A stretch of DNA of 39,603 nt from Parcubacteria group bacterium LiPW_15 (lineage in GTDB: Bacteria > Patescibacteriota > Minisyncoccia > UBA6257 > 2-01-FULL-56-20), in the NCBI GenBank assembly GCA_007375645.1, contig VMER01000004.1, positions 1 to 39,603 on the forward strand, read 5' to 3'. Position numbers and translations under genes: made by a program. Shown here piece after piece: positions 1,945 to 33,750 of the stretch. Within the stretch, counting starts at the first letter, position 1. Each line of letters starts with the position of its first letter. The notes under the pieces were generated by a model that searched no databases, was not told the origin of the DNA, and was given only the letters and a program-made list of their open reading frames with translations.

Positions 1945-4174
1945 GACATTAGTTATCGTGGAGTCCCCCACCAAAGCCAAAACCATCGGTTCGTTTTTGG
2001 GTTCCGAATATATAGTGGAATCTTCCATGGGACATGTCCGTGATCTGCCCAAAAGCAAGATAGGCATAGATGTAAAACACGATTTCACTCCGCAGTACGT
2101 GATTCCAAAAAAAGCGGCTGAACACGTCGCGGAGCTTAAAAAGCTCGCCTCCAAAGCCGCGGAAATAATACTGGCAAGCGATGAAGACCGTGAAGGAGAA
2201 GCTATCGCCTGGCATATCGCCGAACTTTTTAAAGAGTCCGGCTCGGTCAAAGATCCGGAGAAATTGAAGCGCATCGTTTTTCACGAAATAACAAAGAAGG
2301 CCATTGCCGAAGCTATTGAAAACCCGAGGCGCCTGGATATGAACCTGGTTAATGCCCAGCAAGCGAGAAGAATCTTAGACAGGCTTGTCGGCTACGAACT
2401 CTCCCCTTTTCTTTGGAGAAAAATACGCTACGGACTTTCCGCCGGCCGAGTGCAAAGCGTCGCGGTGCGTCTTGTGGTGGAACGCGAACGCGAGATACAA
2501 AATTTTAAAAGCGACGAATACTGGTCTATCGAAGGACTTTTCGAAAAGAAAAAGAGTCAGACCTTTGCCGCGAAGTTGAACACCGCTCACGGCAAGCCCG
2601 TCGGCAAAATGGACATCCACTCCGAAACGGAGGCAAAGGAAATACTTTCCGCGCTCAAGGGCGCCGAATATTCGATCGGAGAAGTATCCACCAAACAAAT
2701 AAACCGCAATCCCTCCGCGCCGTTTACGACCTCCACCCTGCAGCAAGAGGCGGCGAGAAAATTAGGATTCAGCGCCAAGCAGACCATGGTCCTGGCGCAA
2801 AAGCTTTACGAAAAAGGCTACATCACCTATATGCGCACGGATAGCTTGAATCTTTCCGCTTCTTCACTCGAACAAGCCCGCGAAGTTATAACTTCCGAGT
2901 TCGGCAAGCAATACGCGCTCGAGACCCCGAGGTCTTTCACCAATCGCTCCAAGGGAGCACAAGAAGCTCATGAAGCTATCCGCCCGACCGATCTTTCAAA
3001 GAAGATCGGGAATGCCGGCTTCCGGCTGGAAGACCGCGGAGAACAAAAACTATATGACCTTATCTGGAAACGAACCCTCGCCTCGCAGATGCAGCCCGCA
3101 CTCGTGGAACAAACCGCGGCAGATGTTGAAACTGCTGACAAGAAATTTGTTTTCCGCGCCAATGGCCAAACCATAGTTTTTGATGGTTTTATCCGGGTCT
3201 ATACCGAAGGAAACGACGATCAGGCCGAGGATGAGGCTAACACCCTGCCGCCTCTTTCGTCCGGCGACAAAATCTCCGCCAACGAAATAAAACCCTATCA
3301 GCACTTTACCGAACCGCCGGCCAGATATACGGACGCGACTCTCGTTAAAACTCTGGAAGCCGCCGGCGTGGGACGCCCCTCTACTTATGCTCCAACCCTC
3401 TCCACTATCCAGGAACGGGAATACGTGGAAAAAATTGATAAAAAATATCAACCGACCGAAATAGGAATTCTCGTGAACGACATGCTAGTCGAAAATTTTC
3501 CGGAAATTGTGGATATAAATTTCACCTCCCATGTGGAAGAAGAATTCGACAGTATTGCCGAAGGAAATATCGAATGGGTAAAAGTCTTGAAAGAATTTTA
3601 TGTACCCTTCAAAAAACATCTGGACGAGAAAGAGGCATCTGTCGAGAAACAAATTGAAGTCTCCGAGACTCCGTGCCCGCACTGCGGAAAACCGATGCTC
3701 ATAAAATTTGGCCGGATGGGAAAATTTCTGGCTTGTCCGGAACCCGGAAGCAAGGTAACCCAGCCACTGCCGGAGGAAGCAGCAAAAATAAAAGAGCTCC
3801 AAGAAAAAACCGAAGGCGAACTTTGTCCGATTTGCGGAAAACCGATGGAAGTAAAGCGCGGACGTTTCGGATTTTTCTTGGGCTGTTCGGATTATCCGAA
3901 GTGCAAAGGTATCTCCAAAATTTGGAATAAAACCGGATTTAAATGTCCGAATTGCCTTGCGGCGCCGGAAAGAGCCGACAAACCGGGCGATATCGTGGAA
4001 AAGAGAGGCCGCGGCCGCGGCAAACCGTTTTATGCCTGCACCCGCTATCCGGACTGCACTTTTGTGATGAACAAGAAACCGGAAACCCAAGCCGAACTTG
4101 ACGAAGGATATAAATATTGGAAAGCGAACCCTCCGAAGCCTTCGCGTTTCAAAAAAAAGCCGGAAGGAAAGTAA
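1925..4174 (+). CDS. topA: DNA topoisomerase I with C-terminal zinc ribbons
   Basis: LVIVESPTKAKTI, DEDREGEAIAWH, SAGRVQS, ITYMRTDS (catalytic Tyr) and three CPxC zinc-ribbon repeats. Confidence 0.97.
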   Translation: MATKSSKTLVIVESPTKAKTIGSFLGSEYIVESSMGHVRDLPKSKIGIDVKHDFTPQYVIPKKAAEHVAELKKLASKAAEIILASDEDREGEAIAWHIAELFKESGSVKDPEKLKRIVFHEITKKAIAEAIENPRRLDMNLVNAQQARRILDRLVGYELSPFLWRKIRYGLSAGRVQSVAVRLVVEREREIQNFKSDEYWSIEGLFEKKKSQTFAAKLNTAHGKPVGKMDIHSETEAKEILSALKGAEYSIGEVSTKQINRNPSAPFTTSTLQQEAARKLGFSAKQTMVLAQKLYEKGYITYMRTDSLNLSASSLEQAREVITSEFGKQYALETPRSFTNRSKGAQEAHEAIRPTDLSKKIGNAGFRLEDRGEQKLYDLIWKRTLASQMQPALVEQTAADVETADKKFVFRANGQTIVFDGFIRVYTEGNDDQAEDEANTLPPLSSGDKISANEIKPYQHFTEPPARYTDATLVKTLEAAGVGRPSTYAPTLSTIQEREYVEKIDKKYQPTEIGILVNDMLVENFPEIVDINFTSHVEEEFDSIAEGNIEWVKVLKEFYVPFKKHLDEKEASVEKQIEVSETPCPHCGKPMLIKFGRMGKFLACPEPGSKVTQPLPEEAAKIKELQEKTEGELCPICGKPMEVKRGRFGFFLGCSDYPKCKGISKIWNKTGFKCPNCLAAPERADKPGDIVEKRGRGRGKPFYACTRYPDCTFVMNKKPETQAELDEGYKYWKANPPKPSRFKKKPEGK

Positions 4175-4238: not shown

Positions 4239-5948
4239 ATGACTGTTAAAGAGACAGTAAAATCTGAGCCCCAAGGTCAGATAGCGAAAGCTTATAAGTT
4301 CGCCGAAATTGCGCACTCCAAACAAAAACGCCGAACCGGCGAACCATACTTCGTTCACGTCTTAGCTACCGCGGAGATATTGAACTCTTGGCATCTGGAC
4401 GAAGCGACCATCGTCGCCGGACTTCTTCACGACACGGTGGAAGACACCGGCACCACTTCGGAAACTATAACTCAAGAGTTCGGCGACCAGGTAACTTTTT
4501 TGGTAAACGGAGTGACCAAGCTCGGCAAAATTAAATATCGAGGAGCGGAAGCCGAGGCCAAAGCGGAAAATCTCAGGAAAATGATATTGGCCATTTCCGA
4601 AGATCTGCGCGTGGTTTTCATCAAACTTGCCGACAGACTTCACAATATGCGCACCCTCTCTGCTCTTCCTCCGCAAAAACAAAGGCGCATTGCTTTGGAG
4701 ACCCACGAAATCTATGCGCCCTTGGCCTATCGGCTCGGTATGCAAAATATTTCCGGCGAACTTCAGGATTTGGCATTCCCCTATCTCTATCCGGAAGAAT
4801 ATCGCTGGCTCAAAGCCCAGGTGGCGGAAGCATATGAAGCGCGCCTCAAATATTTGGAGAAACTTAAACCCGTAGTGCAAAAAGCCTTGGAGGATAAGGG
4901 TATCCGTTCCGCGACCATAGACTTTCGGGCAAAACGTTATTCCAGCCTTTATAAAAAACTTTTGCGCCAGAGCATGGATGTGGAAAATATTTATGACCTC
5001 GTCGCAATGAGGCTAATACTCAAAAACCAAGAAGCCTGCTATGGGGCGCTCGGCATAATCCACTCTATGTGGCCACCGCTCCCGGGACGCATCAAAGACT
5101 ATATCGCCATGCCCAAGCCGAACGGCTACCGGTCGCTTCACACCACGGTCATCGGACCGGAAAAGAAAATCGTGGAGTTCCAGATCCGCACCGAAGAGAT
5201 GCACGACGAAGCGGAACACGGCGTAGCCGCACACTGGATATATAAGGCGCATGGCGGAGCTAACCCAACCCAACAAAAACGAGTTTTCGATGAGGCCAAG
5301 TGGGTGGAACAACTAAGGCGCTGGCAGGAACATCATGCCGGCACGAACCCGGACGAATTTTTGGAGTCGCTGAAGGTAGATTTCTTCAGAGACAGAATAT
5401 TCGTCATCACTCCACGCGGGGAGGTTCTGGATCTGCCGGTCGGTTCCACGCCGATAGATTTTGCCTATGAGATACACTCCGAAGTCGGCGACACTGCAGT
5501 GGGAGCAAAAGTGAATAACCAGATCGTACCGTTGAGCCACGAACTTCGCTCCGGAGATTTTGTGGAAATTCTTACCCAAAAAAATAAGAAGCCGTCCGAA
5601 GATTGGCTAACCTTTGTAAAAACCTCCAACGCCAAGGATCACGTGCGAATCGCGCTCCGAAAGAAACAAACGGGCCTCCGAAAAATGGCGCCCTTAAAAT
5701 CCGAAATAAAGATGGTCACCAAAGACCGGGTGGGTCTTATAAAAGACATTGCGGTCGTCATCGCCCGTTCGCACGTAAACCTTGAAGGTCTTACAACCGC
5801 GCTTGTTCCCGGCGGTAATTTTCAATCCATTAAAGCTGTCTGCGACACTGCGGACAAACAAAAAATCGAGCGCTTGATCCTGAAATTAAAAGCGATAAAG
5901 GAGATTAAGGAAATAAGCTATCGTCTTCTTGAGCACCAAGCCGCCTAA
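4239..5948 (+). CDS. rel: RelA/SpoT family (p)ppGpp synthetase/hydrolase (HD-SYNTH-TGS-ACT)
   Basis: GEPY..H, LLHDTVEDT, IKLADRLHNMRTL, KDYIA.PKPNGY.SLHT, EFQIRT, TGS (TPIDFAY.IH) and C-terminal ACT (DRVGLIKDI). Confidence 0.93.
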   Translation: MTVKETVKSEPQGQIAKAYKFAEIAHSKQKRRTGEPYFVHVLATAEILNSWHLDEATIVAGLLHDTVEDTGTTSETITQEFGDQVTFLVNGVTKLGKIKYRGAEAEAKAENLRKMILAISEDLRVVFIKLADRLHNMRTLSALPPQKQRRIALETHEIYAPLAYRLGMQNISGELQDLAFPYLYPEEYRWLKAQVAEAYEARLKYLEKLKPVVQKALEDKGIRSATIDFRAKRYSSLYKKLLRQSMDVENIYDLVAMRLILKNQEACYGALGIIHSMWPPLPGRIKDYIAMPKPNGYRSLHTTVIGPEKKIVEFQIRTEEMHDEAEHGVAAHWIYKAHGGANPTQQKRVFDEAKWVEQLRRWQEHHAGTNPDEFLESLKVDFFRDRIFVITPRGEVLDLPVGSTPIDFAYEIHSEVGDTAVGAKVNNQIVPLSHELRSGDFVEILTQKNKKPSEDWLTFVKTSNAKDHVRIALRKKQTGLRKMAPLKSEIKMVTKDRVGLIKDIAVVIARSHVNLEGLTTALVPGGNFQSIKAVCDTADKQKIERLILKLKAIKEIKEISYRLLEHQAA

Positions 5949-7134
5949 GAAGGCCGATGAGTTCTTCCTTGGAATAAAAGGCGATGGTAATTTTTCCCGC
6001 GCCGCGGCTTTCTCGAATTGCAACCGGAGCGCCGAGTTCGGAAGCTAAACGTTCTTCGGCCATTTTAATTTCTGCGGGCATTTCCGCTTTGGCCTTTTGT
6101 TCTTCTTTGGCGTGGCTATAATTTGTAGCCTCCATTTTTAACTCCCTGGTAGTCAGCTTGTTTGCCAGTAAGTCCCTAAAAAGCTTTTTCTGAAGTGCGG
6201 CGTCATCAATCGTCAAAAGCAGCCTGCCGTGGCTTTCCGTAAGCTGTCCCTTTTCGATGGCTTCTTGAATAGGACTCGGAAGGTCTAGAAGGCGCAGAGT
6301 ATTCGCAACCGTCTCCCGGCTCTTCCCAAGCCTCGCGGCTACTTCCCTTTGGGTTAGGCGAAACTCGTCTTGAAGCCGCGCGTAAGCGCGGGCCATTTCC
6401 AACGGGTTAAGATTTTCGCGCTGAAGATTTTCAATTATCGCGAGCTCCAATCTCTCCCTCTCTAAACGCATATTGCGGATTATGGCGGGGATGGTTTCCA
6501 TACCCAAAAGCTTCGTGGCCATCAATCGCCTTTCTCCGGCAATCAGCTCATATTCCACCTCGGTGCCTGTTTCCGTGTCTTTCTCGATCTTTGAAACGAC
6601 TATCGGCTGCAGTAAGCCGAACTCCCGGATGGATGCAGCAAGTTCGCGGAGCGCGTCTTCATCAAAATTTTTGCGCGGTTGGTCCGGATTCGGATGAATT
6701 TTTGCTACTTCAATGTAATATATCGCCTCGCCGGTTTTTTTCGGTTCGTTTTCTTTTTTAAAATGCTGGACAGGTTTTTGAACTGCCGGTTCCGGTTTCT
6801 TTTCCGCGATTACAGGTCTGCCTTCGGGTTCGAGCTTTTTTTCGACTATGGGCTCAAGAACCATAAAATTTTTAACCGGTTCCGTTTTTATCGATTCACC
6901 TATTGAAGGGACTTCCTCCTCCTCCCAGATCGGTGCGATCCTTGCGGGAGGCGCGGTAAACACCCGAGCAGGCTCCTGCCTGCCGGCAGGCAGGTCTTCC
7001 GCCGGACCCATGGGGAGGTCCAAAACCGCATCATCGGGCGGTAGAACAGTCGGAGGTGGCGCATCGTCTGCTTTGCGCTGTTGGCTTTTTGGTATTAGAG
7101 ACTCAAGTCCCCGGCCCAAGGGATTTACGCTCAT
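5905..7134 (-). CDS. parB: ParB/Spo0J chromosome partitioning protein with long Pro/Glu-rich N-terminal linker
   Basis: LGRGL N-terminal peptide, PNPDQPRK.F, GLLQPI, LIAGERR, ENLQRENL, HTH; overlaps the rel 3' end convergently by 44 nt. Confidence 0.95.
   Translation of the reverse strand: MSVNPLGRGLESLIPKSQQRKADDAPPPTVLPPDDAVLDLPMGPAEDLPAGRQEPARVFTAPPARIAPIWEEEEVPSIGESIKTEPVKNFMVLEPIVEKKLEPEGRPVIAEKKPEPAVQKPVQHFKKENEPKKTGEAIYYIEVAKIHPNPDQPRKNFDEDALRELAASIREFGLLQPIVVSKIEKDTETGTEVEYELIAGERRLMATKLLGMETIPAIIRNMRLERERLELAIIENLQRENLNPLEMARAYARLQDEFRLTQREVAARLGKSRETVANTLRLLDLPSPIQEAIEKGQLTESHGRLLLTIDDAALQKKLFRDLLANKLTTRELKMEATNYSHAKEEQKAKAEMPAEIKMAEERLASELGAPVAIRESRGAGKITIAFYSKEELIGLLRRLGAQEDDSLFP
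6975..6994. repeat. 20-bp perfect palindrome CCTGCCTGCCGGCAGGCAGG, inside parB, encoding LPAGRQ
   Basis: Identical copy at 9430-9449 and a variant at 8733-8751. Confidence 0.85.
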
Positions 7135-28507: not shown

Positions 28508-28626
28508 TTGCCGGCACATCCTACTTTCCCGAGGCCCGAAGGCCCAAGTATCATCAGATTTGGACGCTTTCACTTCTCTGTTCGGAATGGGAAGAGGTGG
28601 GACACATCCAAATAAAACACCGGCAA
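28508..28626 (-). rRNA. rrf: 5S rRNA
   Basis: Minus strand reads UUGCCGGUG...CCCACCUCUUCCCAUUCCGAACAGAGAAGUGAAA...GAUGAUACU...GGGAAAGUAGG...GCCGGCAA. Confidence 0.95.
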
Positions 28627-29082: not shown

Positions 29083-29847
29083 CTGTTGAATTAGCCGCTA
29101 GCGACTAGTAAATAGCCACTAGGGTTCATTGTCCATCATTGCTGATGGGATCGGACTATACCATCACCCGAACATTTATGTTTTTGGGTGGTTGACGTGT
29201 TAGCAAGGCTTATGCCTCACTCTGCTCTTTGCATTTTTAGAGCAAGTCTCTACGGGGTCAATACACGTTTCTTTCTTTTTTTGGAATAATTGAGCTCCCG
29301 ATAAGAATCGATAAGCGTAAGCAGAGTCGAAAAATCTTTTTCGTTCTCAACCTTCGCTTTCAGTTCAATTATCTTAAGCATTAGTTCCAATTGTCTTTTC
29401 TTCAAAATGACGAATGGTTTTACCGACTCCAGGAACTTTTTGATGTCATCTATTTTACTGATGGCATATTCCAGGATTCCGTCTTTCCTTTCGCGCATTT
29501 TTCCGCATCCAATAAGTTCGCATACCGCTTCAAAGTTTTCCTTATCTTGGGCGGACTGAAACAACACTACGTACAGAGCGATTTGGAATCCGTACCGATA
29601 GGTAGAATTCGGTTTTGCTCTTACATAAATGCTGCCGTCCCCATCAAGGAAACCGGCGATATATGCTCTTTTATTGGACGATAAAGACTTTGATAACATG
29701 TACGACTTCCCTCGATATTATCCTAACATATGACAGGTTGAATGTCTTGTATTGTTAGGACTTCATCGATATGAGTCAACTTATGCATCCAGTTATTCCT
29801 AACTGGAGCCGCCGTGTGTTCGATGTCATTTCCTCGGGTTCATTTTG
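29083..29847 (-). mobile_element. Group I intron at 23S position 2593 (E. coli numbering), 765 nt
   Basis: Interrupts GGGUUCAAACCGU^CGUGAGACAG; 5' exon ends in U and intron ends in G; IGS CACGGCGG (29809-29816) forms P1 and P10; core elements CGUAGAGACU and GGUAUAGUCC are present. Confidence 0.93.
29250..29699 (-). CDS. Single-motif LAGLIDADG homing endonuclease, I-CreI-like
   Basis: YIAGFLDGDGSI...KPN..Y...QI.L.....Q...E.IG.G...FL....PF..LK..Q..L.LKIIE follows the I-CreI pattern along its length. Confidence 0.93.
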   Translation of the reverse strand: MLSKSLSSNKRAYIAGFLDGDGSIYVRAKPNSTYRYGFQIALYVVLFQSAQDKENFEAVCELIGCGKMRERKDGILEYAISKIDDIKKFLESVKPFVILKKRQLELMLKIIELKAKVENEKDFSTLLTLIDSYRELNYSKKRKKRVLTP

Positions 29848-31280
29848 ACGGTTTGAACCCAGCTCACGTGGCCTTTTAATTGGCGAACAGCCAAACGCTT
29901 GGGAGCTTCTCCACCCCCGCGCTAGGCCGAGCCGACATCGAGGTGCCGAGCATGATCGTCGCTGTGGACGCTCGGATCATACTAGCCTGTTATCCCCGGA
30001 GTAGCTTTTATCCGTTGTCTCCGACCGTTCTATTAAGTGTCGTCGGGTCACTAAGTTCTGCTTTCGCATCTGCTCGACTTGTAGGTCTCGCAGTTAAGCC
30101 GGCTTTTGCCTTTACGCGTCGTGCCCGGTTTCCATCCGGACTAAGCCGACCTTAATAAACTCCTCCGTTACTCTTTAGGAGGAAAACGCCCCATTTAAAC
30201 TACCCGCCAGACACTGTCCCAGTTAGGTTTACCTTTTTGGGCTTCCTAACCGGTTAGCTTTTAAAATTGTGAAGATGGCTGTTTCATTGTCGAGTCCACG
30301 CAAACCGAAATCCACGTATCAACCTCTCACCACTACGCTACGCATCAAAACTCTAAAAGCAATATCAAGCTATAGTAAAGCTTCCGGGGTCTTTTCGTCC
30401 CGCTGCAGGTATCCCGCGTCTTCACGGGAATCGCATTTTCACCGAGCTCATCGTTGAGACAGTTCTCCAGTCGTTACGCCTTTCGTGCGCTTCGGAACTT
30501 ACCCGAAAAGGAATTGCGCTACCTTAGAACGGTTATAGTTACCGCTGACATTGACGAGGGCTTCGGGCGGTACGTAACACACCTTGCGGCATGCCACATC
30601 CACCGTTAACCTTCTCGCATCGGTCAGGCGTCACCCCCTATACATCCTATTGCTAGTTAGCAGGGAGCTGTGTTTTTGGTAAACAGTCGCTAGAGATACT
30701 TTCGCTGCGGCTCCGCTTGCGCGGAGCAGGCCTTATCCCGAAGTTACGGCCGCTTTTTTGCCGAGTTCCTTAACGATGACTCACTCGTTCCCCTTAGGCT
30801 TCTCGCCTCACCCACCAGTGGCGGTTTACGGTACGGAAGCCACACTATCGCTTTACTGGGTTTTTCTCGGAAGGCTCTTCGTTCACGTCCGCCCGGTAAA
30901 AACCGAACGTTCTCCCTCTCTCGGCCGAAGCCTTCAAGCAGGAATGCCAAACCAATAAGGCACGTGAATTTATTTTCTTCGTCCCCCAGATATGATAATG
31001 CGGCTGTGCAGGAATATTAACCTGCTGTCCATCAGCTGCGGCTTTCGCCATTGCCTTAGGGCCGACTAACCCGTGGTTGATTGCCAGTGCCACGGAAACC
31101 TTGGATTTGCGGGGTCTCAATTTCTCATTGGGATTGTGGTTACTCATTCCAACATTCTCTCTTCTTGGCGCTCCACGGGTCCTCGCGGATCCCGCTTCGC
31201 AGCAGCCAAGAATGCTCTCCTACCACTTGCGGACTTGATTGAGGAGGCGAGTTTGGTACTCGCCGGAAACCTGAAAGGCG

Positions 31281-31356
31281 TGGTGTGTCGTAGAGGACTT
31301 GAACCCCCAACTGAGAGATTTAGAGTCTCCCGCTCTACCAATTGAGCTAACGACAC
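31281..31356 (-). tRNA. tRNA with CUA anticodon (putative amber suppressor), Lys-like body, CCA encoded
   Basis: GTGTCGT TA GCTC AATTGGTA GAGC G GGAGA CT-CTA-AA TCTCT CAGTT GGGGG TTCAAGT CCTCT ACGACAC A CCA: a canonical 76-nt cloverleaf. Confidence 0.88.
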
Positions 31357-31389
31357 ACGCTTCCTTTCGAAAAGAACTGGTCAAAGAAA

Positions 31390-31465
31390 TGGAGCAGGTG
31401 GAAGGATTCGAACCCCCGACCCCCGGCATCCTGTGACGGTGCTCTGCCCACTGAGCTACACCCGC
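31390..31465 (-). tRNA. tRNA-like gene, Gly-type acceptor (G1-C72, C2-G71, U73), aberrant anticodon arm (nominal AGG)
   Basis: GCGGGTG/CACCTGC-T-CCA with normal D and T arms; anticodon arm CCGTC-ACAGGAT-GCCGG has a mismatch and C at position 33. Confidence 0.72.
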
Positions 31466-31485
31466 TCATTTCTTTTCTGAGAATT

Positions 31486-31564
31486 TGGTGGAACTGGGTG
31501 GATTGCAACCACCGACCTCCCGAGACCCTCTCGGGCGCTCTTCTGCTTGCTGAGCTACAGTCCC
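31486..31564 (-). tRNA. tRNA-like gene, Ala-type acceptor (G3-U70, A73), closed anticodon loop (nominal GGG)
   Basis: GGGACTG/CAGTTCC-A-CCA; anticodon arm CCCGAGA-GGG-TCTCGGG; D loop lacks GG; T loop TTGCAAT. Confidence 0.7.
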
Positions 31565-31590
31565 ACTTATTTCTTTTTGAAGAAGATCAA

Positions 31591-31665
31591 TGGTGGGCGG
31601 TAGTCGATTCGAACGACTGACCGGCGGCCTATCGAGCCGCTGCTCTTCCGCTGAGCTACCCGCCC
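31591..31665 (-). tRNA. tRNA-like gene, nominal Ile(GAT), Ile/Val-like body, C33
   Basis: GGGCGGG/ACCGCCC-A-CCA (7-66 mismatch); GCGGC-TCGATAG-GCCGC; AGTCG-TTCGAAT-CGACT. Confidence 0.75.
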
Positions 31666-31710
31666 ACTCACTTTTCTTCTTATCTTTCACATGTATTGAT
31701 TCCCAAGAAA

Positions 31711-31800
31711 TGGTCGGGTCGGCAGGAATTGAACCCGCGACCCCGTCGGTCCCGAAGCGCTTCGGCTTTGACGTGCTCTGCCAGGCTGAGCTACGACCCG
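31711..31800 (-). tRNA. tRNA-Pro-like gene (C1-G72, A73) with ~13-nt insertion in the anticodon arm
   Basis: CGGGTCG/CGACCCG-A-CCA, D loop AGCCTGGCA; anticodon region CGTC-AAAG-CCGAAG-CG-CTTCGG-GACC-GACG; 90 nt. Confidence 0.7.
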
Positions 31801-32610
31801 ACCTTTCTTCCAACATGTGTAGACTGCCCGTTCTTAAGGAGTCATCGGAGTTTTGATGGGCTTGGTTTCACGCGAAGCGTGAACCATCAAAACGAGATAC
31901 AGGCGCAAAATTTCCGCTGGAGAAATTTTGACGCCGGTCCTTAAGAACGGGCAGTCGTGATCCTCAATCAAGTCCGCAAATCCATAGCTTCGGTAGCGCG
32001 CTTAGCCCCGGTACATTTTCGGCGCTCCATACCAATCGAATAGTGAGTTGTTACACACTCTTTAAAGGATGGCTACCTCTAAGCCAACCTCCTATCTGTC
32101 CATGGTACAAAACTGCCTTTTACACTTAGCGCGCATTTAGGGACCTTAGCTTATGGTCTGGGCTGTTCCCCTCACGTACACGGAGCTTAGCCCCCGCGTA
32201 CTGACTACCTGGATTCCATGCACGGTATTCGGAGTTTGATTGGTCGGGCAGTCTTTCGACTATTACCGACCATCCAGTGCTCTACCCCCATGCATTACCG
32301 CCAGGCGCTAGTCCTAAAACTATTTCGGAGAGAACTAGCTATTACCGAAATCGATTAGCTTTTCACTCCTTACCCCAAGTCATCCGAGAGTGTTGCACAA
32401 CTCACCGGTTCGGACCTTCCTCCATCTTTCGACGGAGTTCATCCTGCTCAGGGCAAGCTCTTCCGGCTTCGAGTCTTATGCACGCGACTATCCTAAAAGG
32501 ATTACGCCCTATTCAGACTCGGTTTCCCTATGGATGCTCCCCCTAGGGGGATTATCCGAGCCACGTGCACAAAGTCGTTGGATCATTCTTCAATAGGCAC
32601 ACTATCGTCC

Positions 32611-32880
32611 GCTGCATCCCGAACAAATAAAGCGAGATATTGGTGGATTCGGCTTCTGCCGATTCCGCGACGCTCCGACGAAAGTGTAGTCTCGATGAAA
32701 CTACATTGAGGAGGTGCAACAATGGAATCGGCGAAGTCCGAATCCATACCAGATTATTTTTATTTCTGGCTTCGTTGCGCGTCGCTCATGTATCAGCTTC
32801 TGATACACATCGCTTCTTGCGCCTGGCCAGAAATAAAAATTCTTCTGGCCAATGCTCGTTCTATTTGTTCGGGATGCAGT
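32611..32880 (-). other. Structured non-coding intervening sequence in 23S helix 25
   Basis: Perfect 18-bp closing stem (32612-32629 with 32862-32879) at the E. coli ~545 position, with several internal hairpins. Confidence 0.85.
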
Positions 32881-32949
32881 CTAGACTTTAGTTCCTTGTA
32901 GACAAATGGTTTCAGGTTCTATTTCAACGGCCTCACCGGCCTGCTTTTA

Positions 32950-32980
<31 letters not shown>

Positions 32981-33750
32981 ATCATCAAAAGTATTTAGCC
33001 TTGCCTGATAGTACAGGCGAATTCCTTCAAGGCTTTCTTACCTTGAAGTACTCAAGAAAATAAACTAAAAAGTTCATCTGTTTTCGCCTACGGGGCTATC
33101 ACCCACTTTGGCTTCGCTTTCCAGCGAATTCGACTAACAAATGATTTTGTAACTTCTCCTTAGATCTAACCGCTATGCACTAGAGATGCACACAGCGGTT
33201 AAATCCAGTGTCTATTTCTTATGACCCCAAAAATAAATCTTGCGAAAAACTTTTGGTTTAGGCTCTGCCCGTTTCGCTCGCCGCTACTAAGGGTATAAAG
33301 ATTTTTCTTTTTTCCACCAGGTACTGAAATGTTTTACTTCCCTGGGTTCGCTCCTTGGCTTGCGCCAAGATAATTGAGGTTTACTCAATTGGGTTGCCCC
33401 ATTCGGAAATCCCCGGATCATCGGTTGCTACACACCTTCCCGAGGCGTATCGCCGCTACGCTGCGTCCTTCGTCGCCTTTTGATGTCAAGGCATCCACCA
33501 TTCGCCCTTATGCCAGCCATCCCAATGCTGATTTAACTTAAATGCGGACTTAATTTCTATTAAGTCTTACCTTTAATTTACCCAATCACCTTCATAAGGT
33601 GTTGGGGTTCGCATACTTCGATTTTCAAATTTCAGGAATGTATATTCACGAAAAAACCGCTGAGAGTCCAGCGGTTCCAGAGTTCGTCAAAGAGACGGCT
33701 TTAGACCGCAGAGACTATTGGTTTTATCTGAATATTCATTCGTGAGGATA

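Follow-up and report, generated by a model that had tools for sequence, protein, structure and literature searches.

Five tRNA-like modules in a stem-closed insert within the 23S rRNA gene of a Parcubacteria group bacterium

What is a tandem array of five cloverleaves doing in the middle of a 23S ribosomal RNA (rRNA) gene? The question is raised by contig VMER01000004.1 of Parcubacteria group bacterium LiPW_15 (GenBank assembly GCA_007375645.1), the whole of which, 39,603 nucleotides (nt), is referred to here as the window and supplies all positions that are given without a contig or locus name. In this window, the 23S rRNA gene is interrupted at the site of helix 45 by an insert that is closed by a long complementary stem and that, judged from its sequence, appears to contain five foreign, stem-bracketed modules derived from transfer RNA (tRNA) and one copy of an abundant mini-element, designated X. 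The favored reading, to which a probability of roughly 0.55 is given, is that the insert is an intervening sequence (IVS) of the ribonuclease III (RNase III) type, that its apical loop is a landing site for mobile DNA, and that the modules are tolerated passengers. For the tRNA-bearing insert as a whole, the observation made in an initial annotation of the locus was confirmed and the interpretation attached to it was supported in part.

Anatomy and sequence support of the insert

The window is an entire contig (C4) of a genome of 0.79 Mb that is divided into five contigs and is 98% complete, and its 23S rRNA gene is the sole copy in the genome of this ultra-small bacterium. The host gene and the elements that frame the insert are as follows.

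29728-33520, minus strand: 23S rRNA gene, host of the insert (Rfam RF02541, 1981 bits, model positions 1-2925, an end-to-end match; 3793 nt versus a 2925-position model)
31961-31981, minus strand: 5' arm of the closing stem, an extended helix 45 (perfect 19-nt inverted repeat; 21 pairs with one G-U)
31225-31245, minus strand: 3' arm of the closing stem (same inverted repeat, with its 21-pair extension)
31246-31264, minus strand: terminal GC hairpin adjoining the 3' arm (read from the sequence; a conserved feature of this insert type)

Alignment to the Rfam large-subunit (LSU) rRNA model was contiguous on either side of the insert, with all extra bases placed after model position 1218. In the local alignment, the insertion site was a hairpin bounded by ACCGAAG and GGUAGGAGAGC, which we take to be helix 45 in E. 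coli numbering. The insert occupies positions 31227-31979 (753 nt), and its terminal arms of 19 nt each, at 31227-31245 and 31961-31979, are 100% complementary (inverted repeat I1) and lengthen to a helix of 21 pairs that includes one G-U. The interruption of 753 nt at helix 45 and the perfect 19-bp stem that had initially been annotated were therefore matched exactly by the LSU model and the inverted-repeat search. Furthermore, the insert RNA had a predicted folding energy of -345 kcal/mol compared with -254.9 +/- 6.8 kcal/mol in 20 shuffled sequences (z = -13.3), and its structure is not due to chance. Neither a sigma-70-like promoter nor a terminator-like site in the rRNA sense was found within the insert, and no group I or group II intron family gave a covariance-model match at E values of up to 10 across positions 31000-32250.

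An assembly artefact, in which a tRNA cluster was misjoined into the 23S gene, would be in keeping with the frequent misjoining of metagenome bins at rRNA and tRNA repeats and with the status of run X1, the sole sequencing run that holds the whole stretch (0.97 of its sampled words), which is possibly the source run and so not independent. In X1, however, a separately built Logan contig of 1028 nt (depth, 23.7) spanned positions 31038-32065 with 0 mismatches and 0 gaps, and the contigs neighboring it had depths of 25.6 and 20.6. Joints that skipped the insert had short sides (21-25 nt) or other letters in between and fit 23S genes of other organisms, and no insert-free allele of this strain was seen among the X1 contigs. 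In addition, the ends of the insert are perfectly complementary and continue helix 45, and the same stem, closing over other tRNA cargo, is present in eight other genomes and in contigs of two other studies (runs X3 and X4), in which the flanks and closing stem were the same at 98-99% identity and the interior differed. Six RNA runs contained just 0.07-0.10 of the words of the stretch, probably from conserved parts of 23S rRNA. Both junctions, on whose continuity the initial annotation had made its claim depend, are thus spanned without a mismatch by one contig, albeit from the possible source run, and the flanks, on whose contiguity it had equally relied, align without a break on both sides. 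As far as the contigs show, the locus is not an assembly chimera, and a misjoin is barely credible as its explanation.

The five modules and decoding capacity

The cloverleaves were called by ARAGORN and scored with the Rfam tRNA model RF00005, the gathering score of which is 29 bits.

31711-31800, minus strand: module 1 (ARAGORN; Rfam tRNA, 44.4 bits; ends in CCA)
31591-31665, minus strand: module 2 (ARAGORN; Rfam tRNA, 51.7 bits; ends in CCA)
31486-31564, minus strand: module 3 (ARAGORN only; below the Rfam tRNA threshold; ends in CCA)
31390-31465, minus strand: module 4 (ARAGORN; Rfam tRNA, 47.7 bits; ends in CCA)
31281-31356, minus strand: module 5 (called "Pyl" by ARAGORN; Rfam tRNA, 65.5 bits; ends in CCA)

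All five lie in the rRNA sense, and the coordinates returned by ARAGORN were identical to those first annotated. Their tRNA-like character was upheld for five of five modules by ARAGORN and for four of five by Rfam, with module 3 as the one that fell short. When ARAGORN was relaxed (loose thresholds, introns allowed), 34 calls were obtained, many of them in plain 23S sequence, and these were discarded as noise.

In module 1, the acceptor (C1-G72, A73) and the T loop are like those of a proline tRNA, and the anticodon loop of 20 nt contains a 14-nt palindrome, of which no second occurrence was found in the genome. Module 2 is Ile(GAU)-like, with the anticodon loop UCGAUAG, in which C stands at position 33 in place of U33. 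Module 3 combines a G3:U70 acceptor with the anticodon loop GAGGGUC, which is able to close to a triloop, a D loop without GG, and the T loop UUGCAAU; the changes in its D and T loops look like a swap of the 19-56 tertiary pair (own numbering) from G-C to C-G. As a tRNA-like domain of transfer-messenger RNA (tmRNA), module 3 scored 14 bits versus a threshold of 47, and the real tmRNA of the genome sits on contig C1. Module 4 has a G3:U70 acceptor, U73, and the anticodon loop ACAGGAU (C33). Module 5 is a flawless cloverleaf with the canonical loop CUCUAAA and the anticodon CUA, and because the sequences nearest to it are tRNA-Lys(CUU/UUU) genes from related genomes and from phages (79-84% identity), it is predicted to be an amber suppressor derived from tRNA-Lys(CUU). 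Two further origins were considered and rejected: a phage origin of the modules, for which just generic matches of ~83% to phage tRNA-Lys and tRNA-Arg were obtained, and retro-copying as the origin of the encoded CCA, for which a reverse transcriptase was sought and not found.

The modules were compared with the 45 resident tRNA genes that ARAGORN identified outside the array. The CCA is encoded in 5 of 5 modules versus 7 of 45 resident tRNAs (p = 4e-4), and pairing of the leader with the 3' end (-1:73 and -2:74) was found in 5 of 5 versus 2 of 45 (Fisher p = 1e-5), although such 5-of-5 counts overstate independence, as the modules may share a tandem-duplication ancestry. In module 4, both sides of the leader pairing are changed (A-1 with U73). 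A leader-trailer duplex of -8.1 kcal/mol or below was predicted for four modules versus 8 of 45 resident tRNAs, and U occupies position -1 in four modules versus 18 of 45. The spacers between modules have a common AAGAAA...UUUCUU inverted motif, and every module appears to be raised on a separate stalk, in the manner of a small cassette with hairpin ends.

The resident set includes canonical Ile-GAU and Pro-GGG/UGG/CGG, and the identity between array modules and resident tRNAs was never above 73%. When the loop of a working decoder was sought (7 nt, U33, purine at position 37, and a sense anticodon), 0 of 5 modules passed, the loops of modules 1-4 being malformed and that of module 5, canonical in form, bearing a stop anticodon. 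Nor did the modules fill an isoacceptor gap: the isoacceptors that they resemble are present elsewhere in canonical form. TAG is the stop of 179 of 664 crude open reading frames (ORFs) (27%), with no unusual back-up stops, and there are two release-factor homologues in the genome. Because four of the loops are unworkable, the fifth reads TAG, and the isoacceptors are already resident, the modules are unlikely to be a supply of working tRNAs, and the ordinary decoding of a sense codon is beyond all five.

In the resident set of 45, ARAGORN called no tRNA-Phe and only one tRNA with a CAU anticodon. The encoded CCA is absent from 38 of the 45 resident genes, though RNase Z was not found above threshold in the genome (20.8 bits versus a 293-bit cut-off). 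Assembly gaps or unusual genes are possible explanations for these absences.

Relatives, cargo turnover, and element X

The insert with both of its flanks was compared with sampled genomes, and loci with a large gap at the helix-45 site were retrieved, with the following results.

Family of the window: 23S match in 40 of 75 genomes; 20 large-gap loci; tRNA hits in 4 (L045, L046, L047, and L061)
Class of the window: 23S match in 98 of 150 genomes; 20 large-gap loci; tRNA hits in 2 (L029 and L039)
Rest of the phylum: 23S match in 66 of 106 genomes; 12 large-gap loci; tRNA hits in 0 (ARAGORN only)

Overall, 6 of 52 loci carried tRNA-bearing inserts, and 46 were without a tRNA hit. A degenerate 18-mer of the 3' arm, searched against a species collection, matched 86 loci, nearly all of them chance matches in unrelated phyla; ARAGORN, applied to nine of these loci, found tRNAs in four, two of which belonged to genomes identified before and two to new ones (L115 and L163). 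The exact 20-mer of the closing stem was found in metagenome contigs at one locus, a chance match in unrelated DNA, and no whole-insert homologue was found among 60 relatives, in which only element X and generic tRNA similarity were matched. In the eight genomes besides this one, the insert tRNA hits are all in the rRNA sense. Inserts bearing tRNAs recur and are concentrated near this family; the scan of 23S insertions in the candidate phyla radiation (CPR) that had been proposed at the outset was productive within the class and returned none in the 12 loci outside it.

The closing stem is homologous in other genera (L045, L046, L047, L064, L115, and L163), where differences on one strand are compensated on the other, and the GC hairpin before the 3' arm (GGCGA...UCGCC) is also present in L045, L046, L047, L115, and L163. 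In L064, the conserved stem closes a short loop and carries no cargo, and in the samples generally the gap at helix 45 ranges from ~10 to ~590 nt. These data bear on the initial suggestion that the cloverleaves are RNase P/Z punctuation marks needed for excision of the insert and fragmentation of the 23S rRNA. Such a role would be compatible with the presence of RNase P RNA, with U at position -1 in four of the five modules, and with the tRNA-like processing signals known elsewhere, such as mitochondrial punctuation and MALAT1/mascRNA. Nevertheless, L064 and many further inserts have kept the stem while carrying no tRNAs (46 of the 52 at helix 45 lack a tRNA hit), an RNase III gene is present, RNase Z did not reach threshold, and U at -1 is also frequent in resident tRNAs. 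Moreover, the cloverleaves do not adjoin the rRNA ends: module 1 begins ~160 nt inside the 5' arm, with the stem and X intervening, and module 5 ends ~35 nt before the 3' arm and 54 nt before the 3' end of the insert, with the GC hairpin intervening. Because the stem is conserved in tRNA-free form and the cloverleaves lie inside its arms, the tRNA folds would not be needed for the ends of the 23S fragments, and the suggestion is improbable as it stands; the insert, once excised, may still be a substrate of RNase P.

The cargo of the insert changes rapidly. The contig from X4 has the same flanks, stem, and X, with 18 nt in place of modules 1-3, a diverged copy of module 4 (20 differences and 3 gaps in 98 nt), and 364 other nt replacing a 134-nt stretch that contains module 5. 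The contig from X3 has a third arrangement of the cargo, and a variant module 4 is found in both X3 and X4. Modules have thus been swapped among near-identical strains. Among more distant loci, different tRNA-like cargo was found in L045, L046, L047, L061, L115, and L163. The cargo of relatives ranges from canonical-looking, CCA-less tRNAs, such as the Lys-CUU of genome G238 and the Arg-UCG and Thr-GGU of genome G248, to disabled, CCA-ended cloverleaves, whose loops are 6 nt long or whose D arm or anticodon loop has received a large insertion. The anticodon loop is disrupted by the palindrome in module 1, by a large insertion in L045, and by expansion to 23 nt in L039.

The possibility that the insert tRNAs of G238 and G248 are the sole copies of their isoacceptors was ruled out by second copies elsewhere: G238, a one-contig genome, has another Lys-CUU outside its insert, and the resident Thr-GGU and Arg-UCG of G248 are identical to the insert copies at 53 of 76 positions (70%) and 44 of 75 positions (59%), respectively. 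These findings complete the case on whether the 23S precursor supplies working tRNAs about 1:1 with ribosomes, of which module 5 at the least would be a true amber suppressor. The initial annotation had seen the precursor as such a carrier. Cotranscription would follow naturally from the lack of an internal promoter or terminator, and that part of the proposal is plausible; the loops, the use of TAG as a stop, and the redundancy of the modules do not agree with the release of working tRNAs. In favor of a real supply are the flawless cloverleaf, canonical loop, and high Rfam score of module 5, together with the insert tRNAs of G248 and G238, which, because they look canonical, suggest that helix-45 inserts can hold apparently functional tRNA genes. 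Weighing more heavily, four of the five loops in the window are malformed, TAG is a common stop in a genome with two release-factor homologues, and every insert tRNA that was checked duplicates a resident gene, so that a working supply has a low probability.

Several observations on the relatives are added here. In G248, a group of three tRNA genes, Pro-CGG, Arg-GCG, and Arg-UCU (L185, G248:C25, positions 1997-2229, plus strand), is found, on the strand opposite to 23S, ~1.7 kb away from the helix-45 insert; all three duplicate isoacceptors elsewhere, and their D-arm style is as in the insert tRNAs. A second type of helix-45 insert in the same family (L049, L051, L052, L054, L056, and L057) is without tRNAs and consists of GC-rich hairpins with mirror-image arrays of ~7-nt repeats between them. 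The Y-RNA-like YrlA model matched L046 weakly at positions 387-516 (31.4 bits versus a gathering score of 69), from the T arm of one tRNA-like across the spacer into the D arm of the one that follows; on the array of the window itself, the YrlA model gave ~15 bits, far below 69.

The remaining component of the insert, element X, is also found elsewhere in the genome.

31822-31956, minus strand: element X, a structured mini-element with a three-way junction and its own 19-bp outer stem (inverted repeat I2)
C5:348199-348324, C2:163637-163752, and C5:382635-382758: examples of other X copies in the genome (model R1; eight more copies beyond these)

Element X is a repeat of ~125 nt, and the copy in the insert (135 nt) is located between the 5' arm and module 1. 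Covariance model R1, which was built from eight X copies out of six genomes, gave 123.5 bits at 31827-31951, a match that holds by construction, as the insert copy was in the seed alignment. Among the eight copies, 30 of 42 predicted pairs show two-sided changes; the stems covary freely, and the junction and loop motifs are conserved. A total of 12 copies were identified in this genome, and the independent support for the model comes from about 400 matches distributed over 53 of 76 genomes of the family, with up to 29 per genome; no Rfam match to element X was found. The element is frequently located just 3' of tRNA or protein genes, and three of the copies in this genome share the orientation of a tRNA-Pro or tRNA-Glu gene and lie 12-190 nt downstream of it. 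At helix 45, X was found in 1 of 41 loci searched, the present one. X is a secondary insertion, a mobile passenger that does not belong to the design of the insert.

A second X match in the helix-45 locus search belongs to another stem-closed insert in the 23S gene of genome G007 (L021, G007:C22, positions 5150-6591), near model position 2270; this insert begins with an X copy, which is followed by sequence encoding a LAGLIDADG-type protein. In L045 (G238; positions ~470-614), the second tRNA-like module has an insertion of ~60 nt in its anticodon loop, the first hairpin of which is like stem P2 of X by eye and gave no match to model R1.

Other features of the rRNA locus are the following.

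28509-28624: 5S rRNA gene (Rfam search)
29250-29699, minus strand (rRNA strand): LAGLIDADG endonuclease ORF of 149 amino acids in the 23S-5S spacer of 1.1 kb (Pfam, 44.5 bits)
~33150-33220: further insertion in the 23S gene, ~59 nt after model position 312
~32800-32880: further insertion in the 23S gene, at least 68 nt after model position 583

Processing, known systems, and meaning

The enzymes that the favored reading invokes are represented in the genome by an RNase III gene (136 bits), an RNase P RNA (120.6 bits), and a CCA-adding enzyme gene. In the reading of the insert as an RNase III-type IVS with tolerated passengers, the whole insert would be transcribed within the 23S precursor, as is suggested by the absence of promoter-like and rRNA-sense terminator-like sites inside it. 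RNase III would then cut the 21-bp closing stem, leaving the 23S rRNA in two pieces of ~1.54 and ~1.50 kb that would be kept together in the ribosome. In the freed 0.75-kb RNA, RNase P would cut 5' of each cloverleaf, and the 3' ends would be trimmed to the encoded CCA, yielding five L-shaped RNAs of 75-90 nt that would be produced in step with ribosomes and may be stable, presumably with no role in the cell. The excised insert would be a harmless site for passengers, whereas an extra decoding-competent tRNA expressed at the level of rRNA would be harmful, and damage would for that reason be concentrated in the anticodon loops, with the cloverleaves left intact; the anticodon-loop damage found here fits selection against an extra decoder of this kind. 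That the modules are tolerated passengers is argued by their being redundant, foreign, and disabled, by the fast turnover of cargo, and by the retention of the stem without cargo in some relatives.

Several findings weigh against this reading. The intact stems, elbows, and CCA of all five modules could mean functional selection and not recency, the apparently swapped 19-56 pair of module 3 hints at selection on the L shape, and RNase P cleavage could be impeded or displaced by the pairing of the leader with positions 73-74. G3:U70 is the alanine identity pair. It occurs in 5 of 18 insert tRNA-likes (from four genomes) versus 3 of 45 resident tRNAs (p = 0.04, with non-independent copies), an excess that would be unexpected for junk. 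The possible descent of the modules from one another by tandem duplication, mentioned above, also belongs on this side.

These points lead to the alternative that the modules do have a function, as tRNA mimics that do not decode and whose production keeps step with that of ribosomes. They might be decoys for mobile elements or nucleases that target tRNAs, amino-acid donors for which charging through the acceptor stem alone suffices (with alanine via G3:U70), or regulators for which only the L shape and the CCA end are needed. The combination of intact stems and elbows with disabled loops, the G3:U70 excess, and the frequency of the encoded CCA would all be in line with such mimics, as would the fact that the insert modules are themselves struck in the anticodon loop (module 1, L045, and L039). 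In addition, a canonical loop was found in 3 of 11 CCA-bearing versus 5 or 6 of 7 CCA-less insert modules (hand reading, p = 0.05 to 0.14). However, the cargo differs from genus to genus and even among near-identical strains, the stem is kept by some relatives without any cargo (L064), the statistics, which come from non-independent samples, are weak, and no partner protein was identified; a FemAB-type transferase, a possible user of Ala-charged mimics, was not found in the genome. Mimicry is accordingly regarded as a minority possibility. Somewhat less likely again is its fuller form, in which the insert would be a ribosome-coupled production site for distinct CCA-ended, L-shaped, non-decoding mimics with a cellular role outside normal decoding; several of these would have the alanine identity pair and one would be a Lys-derived stop-codon reader, and they might serve as decoys, soaking up the many mobile elements or nucleases of these genomes that target tRNAs, or as amino-acid donors charged at the acceptor stem.

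A different fate of the insert, in which it would remain on the mature large subunit as a surface expansion segment studded with tRNAs, would suit helix 45, a surface site tolerant of insertions, and the strong structure of the insert (z = -13.3). It is opposed by the near-perfect 21-bp duplex in a genome with an RNase III gene, by the RNase III cleavage of inserts at this site in other bacteria, which is presumed also for CPR in the available text of PMC11270868, and by a turnover of cargo too fast for a ribosomal role, and it is very improbable.

How far does the insert resemble systems already described? Helix-45 IVSs are known in Salmonella, Campylobacter, Leptospira, and Coxiella, according to the portions of PMC2801512 and PMC4990558 consulted. 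The present insert has the position at helix 45, the stem of about two turns, and the variable content among relatives that characterize an IVS. It is like the classical examples in its site, in the long complementary closing stem, in its patchy occurrence among relatives, in its selfish or horizontally moved character, and in the expectation of RNase III excision without re-ligation. It is unlike them in its contents, since those are plain hairpins or carry one small ORF (S23p, Coxiella), whereas five tRNA-shaped modules and a mobile mini-element are found here, and in combining a changing cargo with vertical conservation of the stem across genera.

Within CPR, Tsurumaki et al. (2024; PMC11270868) described, in the text available, a 23S site termed 23IS4 with non-intron, ORF-less insertions, including insertions of 500-1000 bp, the function of which was given as unknown and for which an RNase III-type IVS was suggested. 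The present insert is from the same phylum and probably of the same site class; the cargo is uncharacterized in that report, which has 0 instances of the word "tRNA" in its main text and 0 in the one supplement searched. Spacer tRNAs, namely, tRNA-Ile and tRNA-Ala between the genes for 16S and 23S rRNA, include CPR cases in the consulted part of PMC8172020. They are tRNAs cotranscribed with rRNA and released by processing of its precursor, as the modules would be, and further points in common are the Ile(GAU)-like nature of module 2 and the alanine pair G3:U70 of two modules; spacer tRNAs, however, lie between rRNA genes and are working, whereas the modules lie within 23S and are mostly disabled and redundant. 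The portions of PMC9297842 and PMC8172020 consulted describe rRNA insertions and spacer tRNAs in CPR and not a tRNA-bearing 23S insert.

The nearest printed analogue appears to be the mitochondrial LSU rRNA of Tetrahymena, which is in two parts separated by a tRNA gene (Heinonen et al., 1987, as cited in the part of PMC2996981 consulted). In both cases a tRNA stands between two LSU rRNA pieces that function unjoined; the Tetrahymena case differs, as far as that source describes it, in concerning an organelle, a different site, rearranged rRNA pieces, and one working tRNA, with no closing stem. The literature searched yielded no account of a bacterial 23S IVS that contains tRNA or tRNA-like genes, in agreement with the initial statement that no such case was known.

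Known tRNA-like signals and mimics include mitochondrial tRNA punctuation, MALAT1/mascRNA, the tRNA-like domain of tmRNA, and YrlA. The modules are like these in that they form a CCA-ended cloverleaf or L shape, are non-decoding, and could be released by RNase P, and the G3:U70 pair is as in tmRNA. They are unlike these in their scores (tmRNA, 14 versus 47 bits; YrlA, 15-31 versus 69 bits) and in not defining the ends of the host RNA.

The insert extends the range of cargo in bacterial rRNA IVSs beyond hairpins or one small ORF to whole arrays of tRNA-shaped RNAs. If released, the RNAs of the insert would rank with the small RNAs that the cell makes in greatest abundance. The array is also an annotation trap, as gene finders call a "Pyl/suppressor," extra Pro and Ile, and an unclassifiable tRNA inside the 23S gene, which could be misread as stop-codon reassignment, though TAG is an ordinary stop here. 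It offers a tractable system for how extra tRNA genes become disarmed, and the modules with alanine identity and the suppressor module would allow direct biochemical tests of the charging of mimics. For ultra-small bacteria more widely, the excised parts of rRNA precursors would be safe harbors in which mobile tRNA modules and mini-elements may accumulate and turn over.

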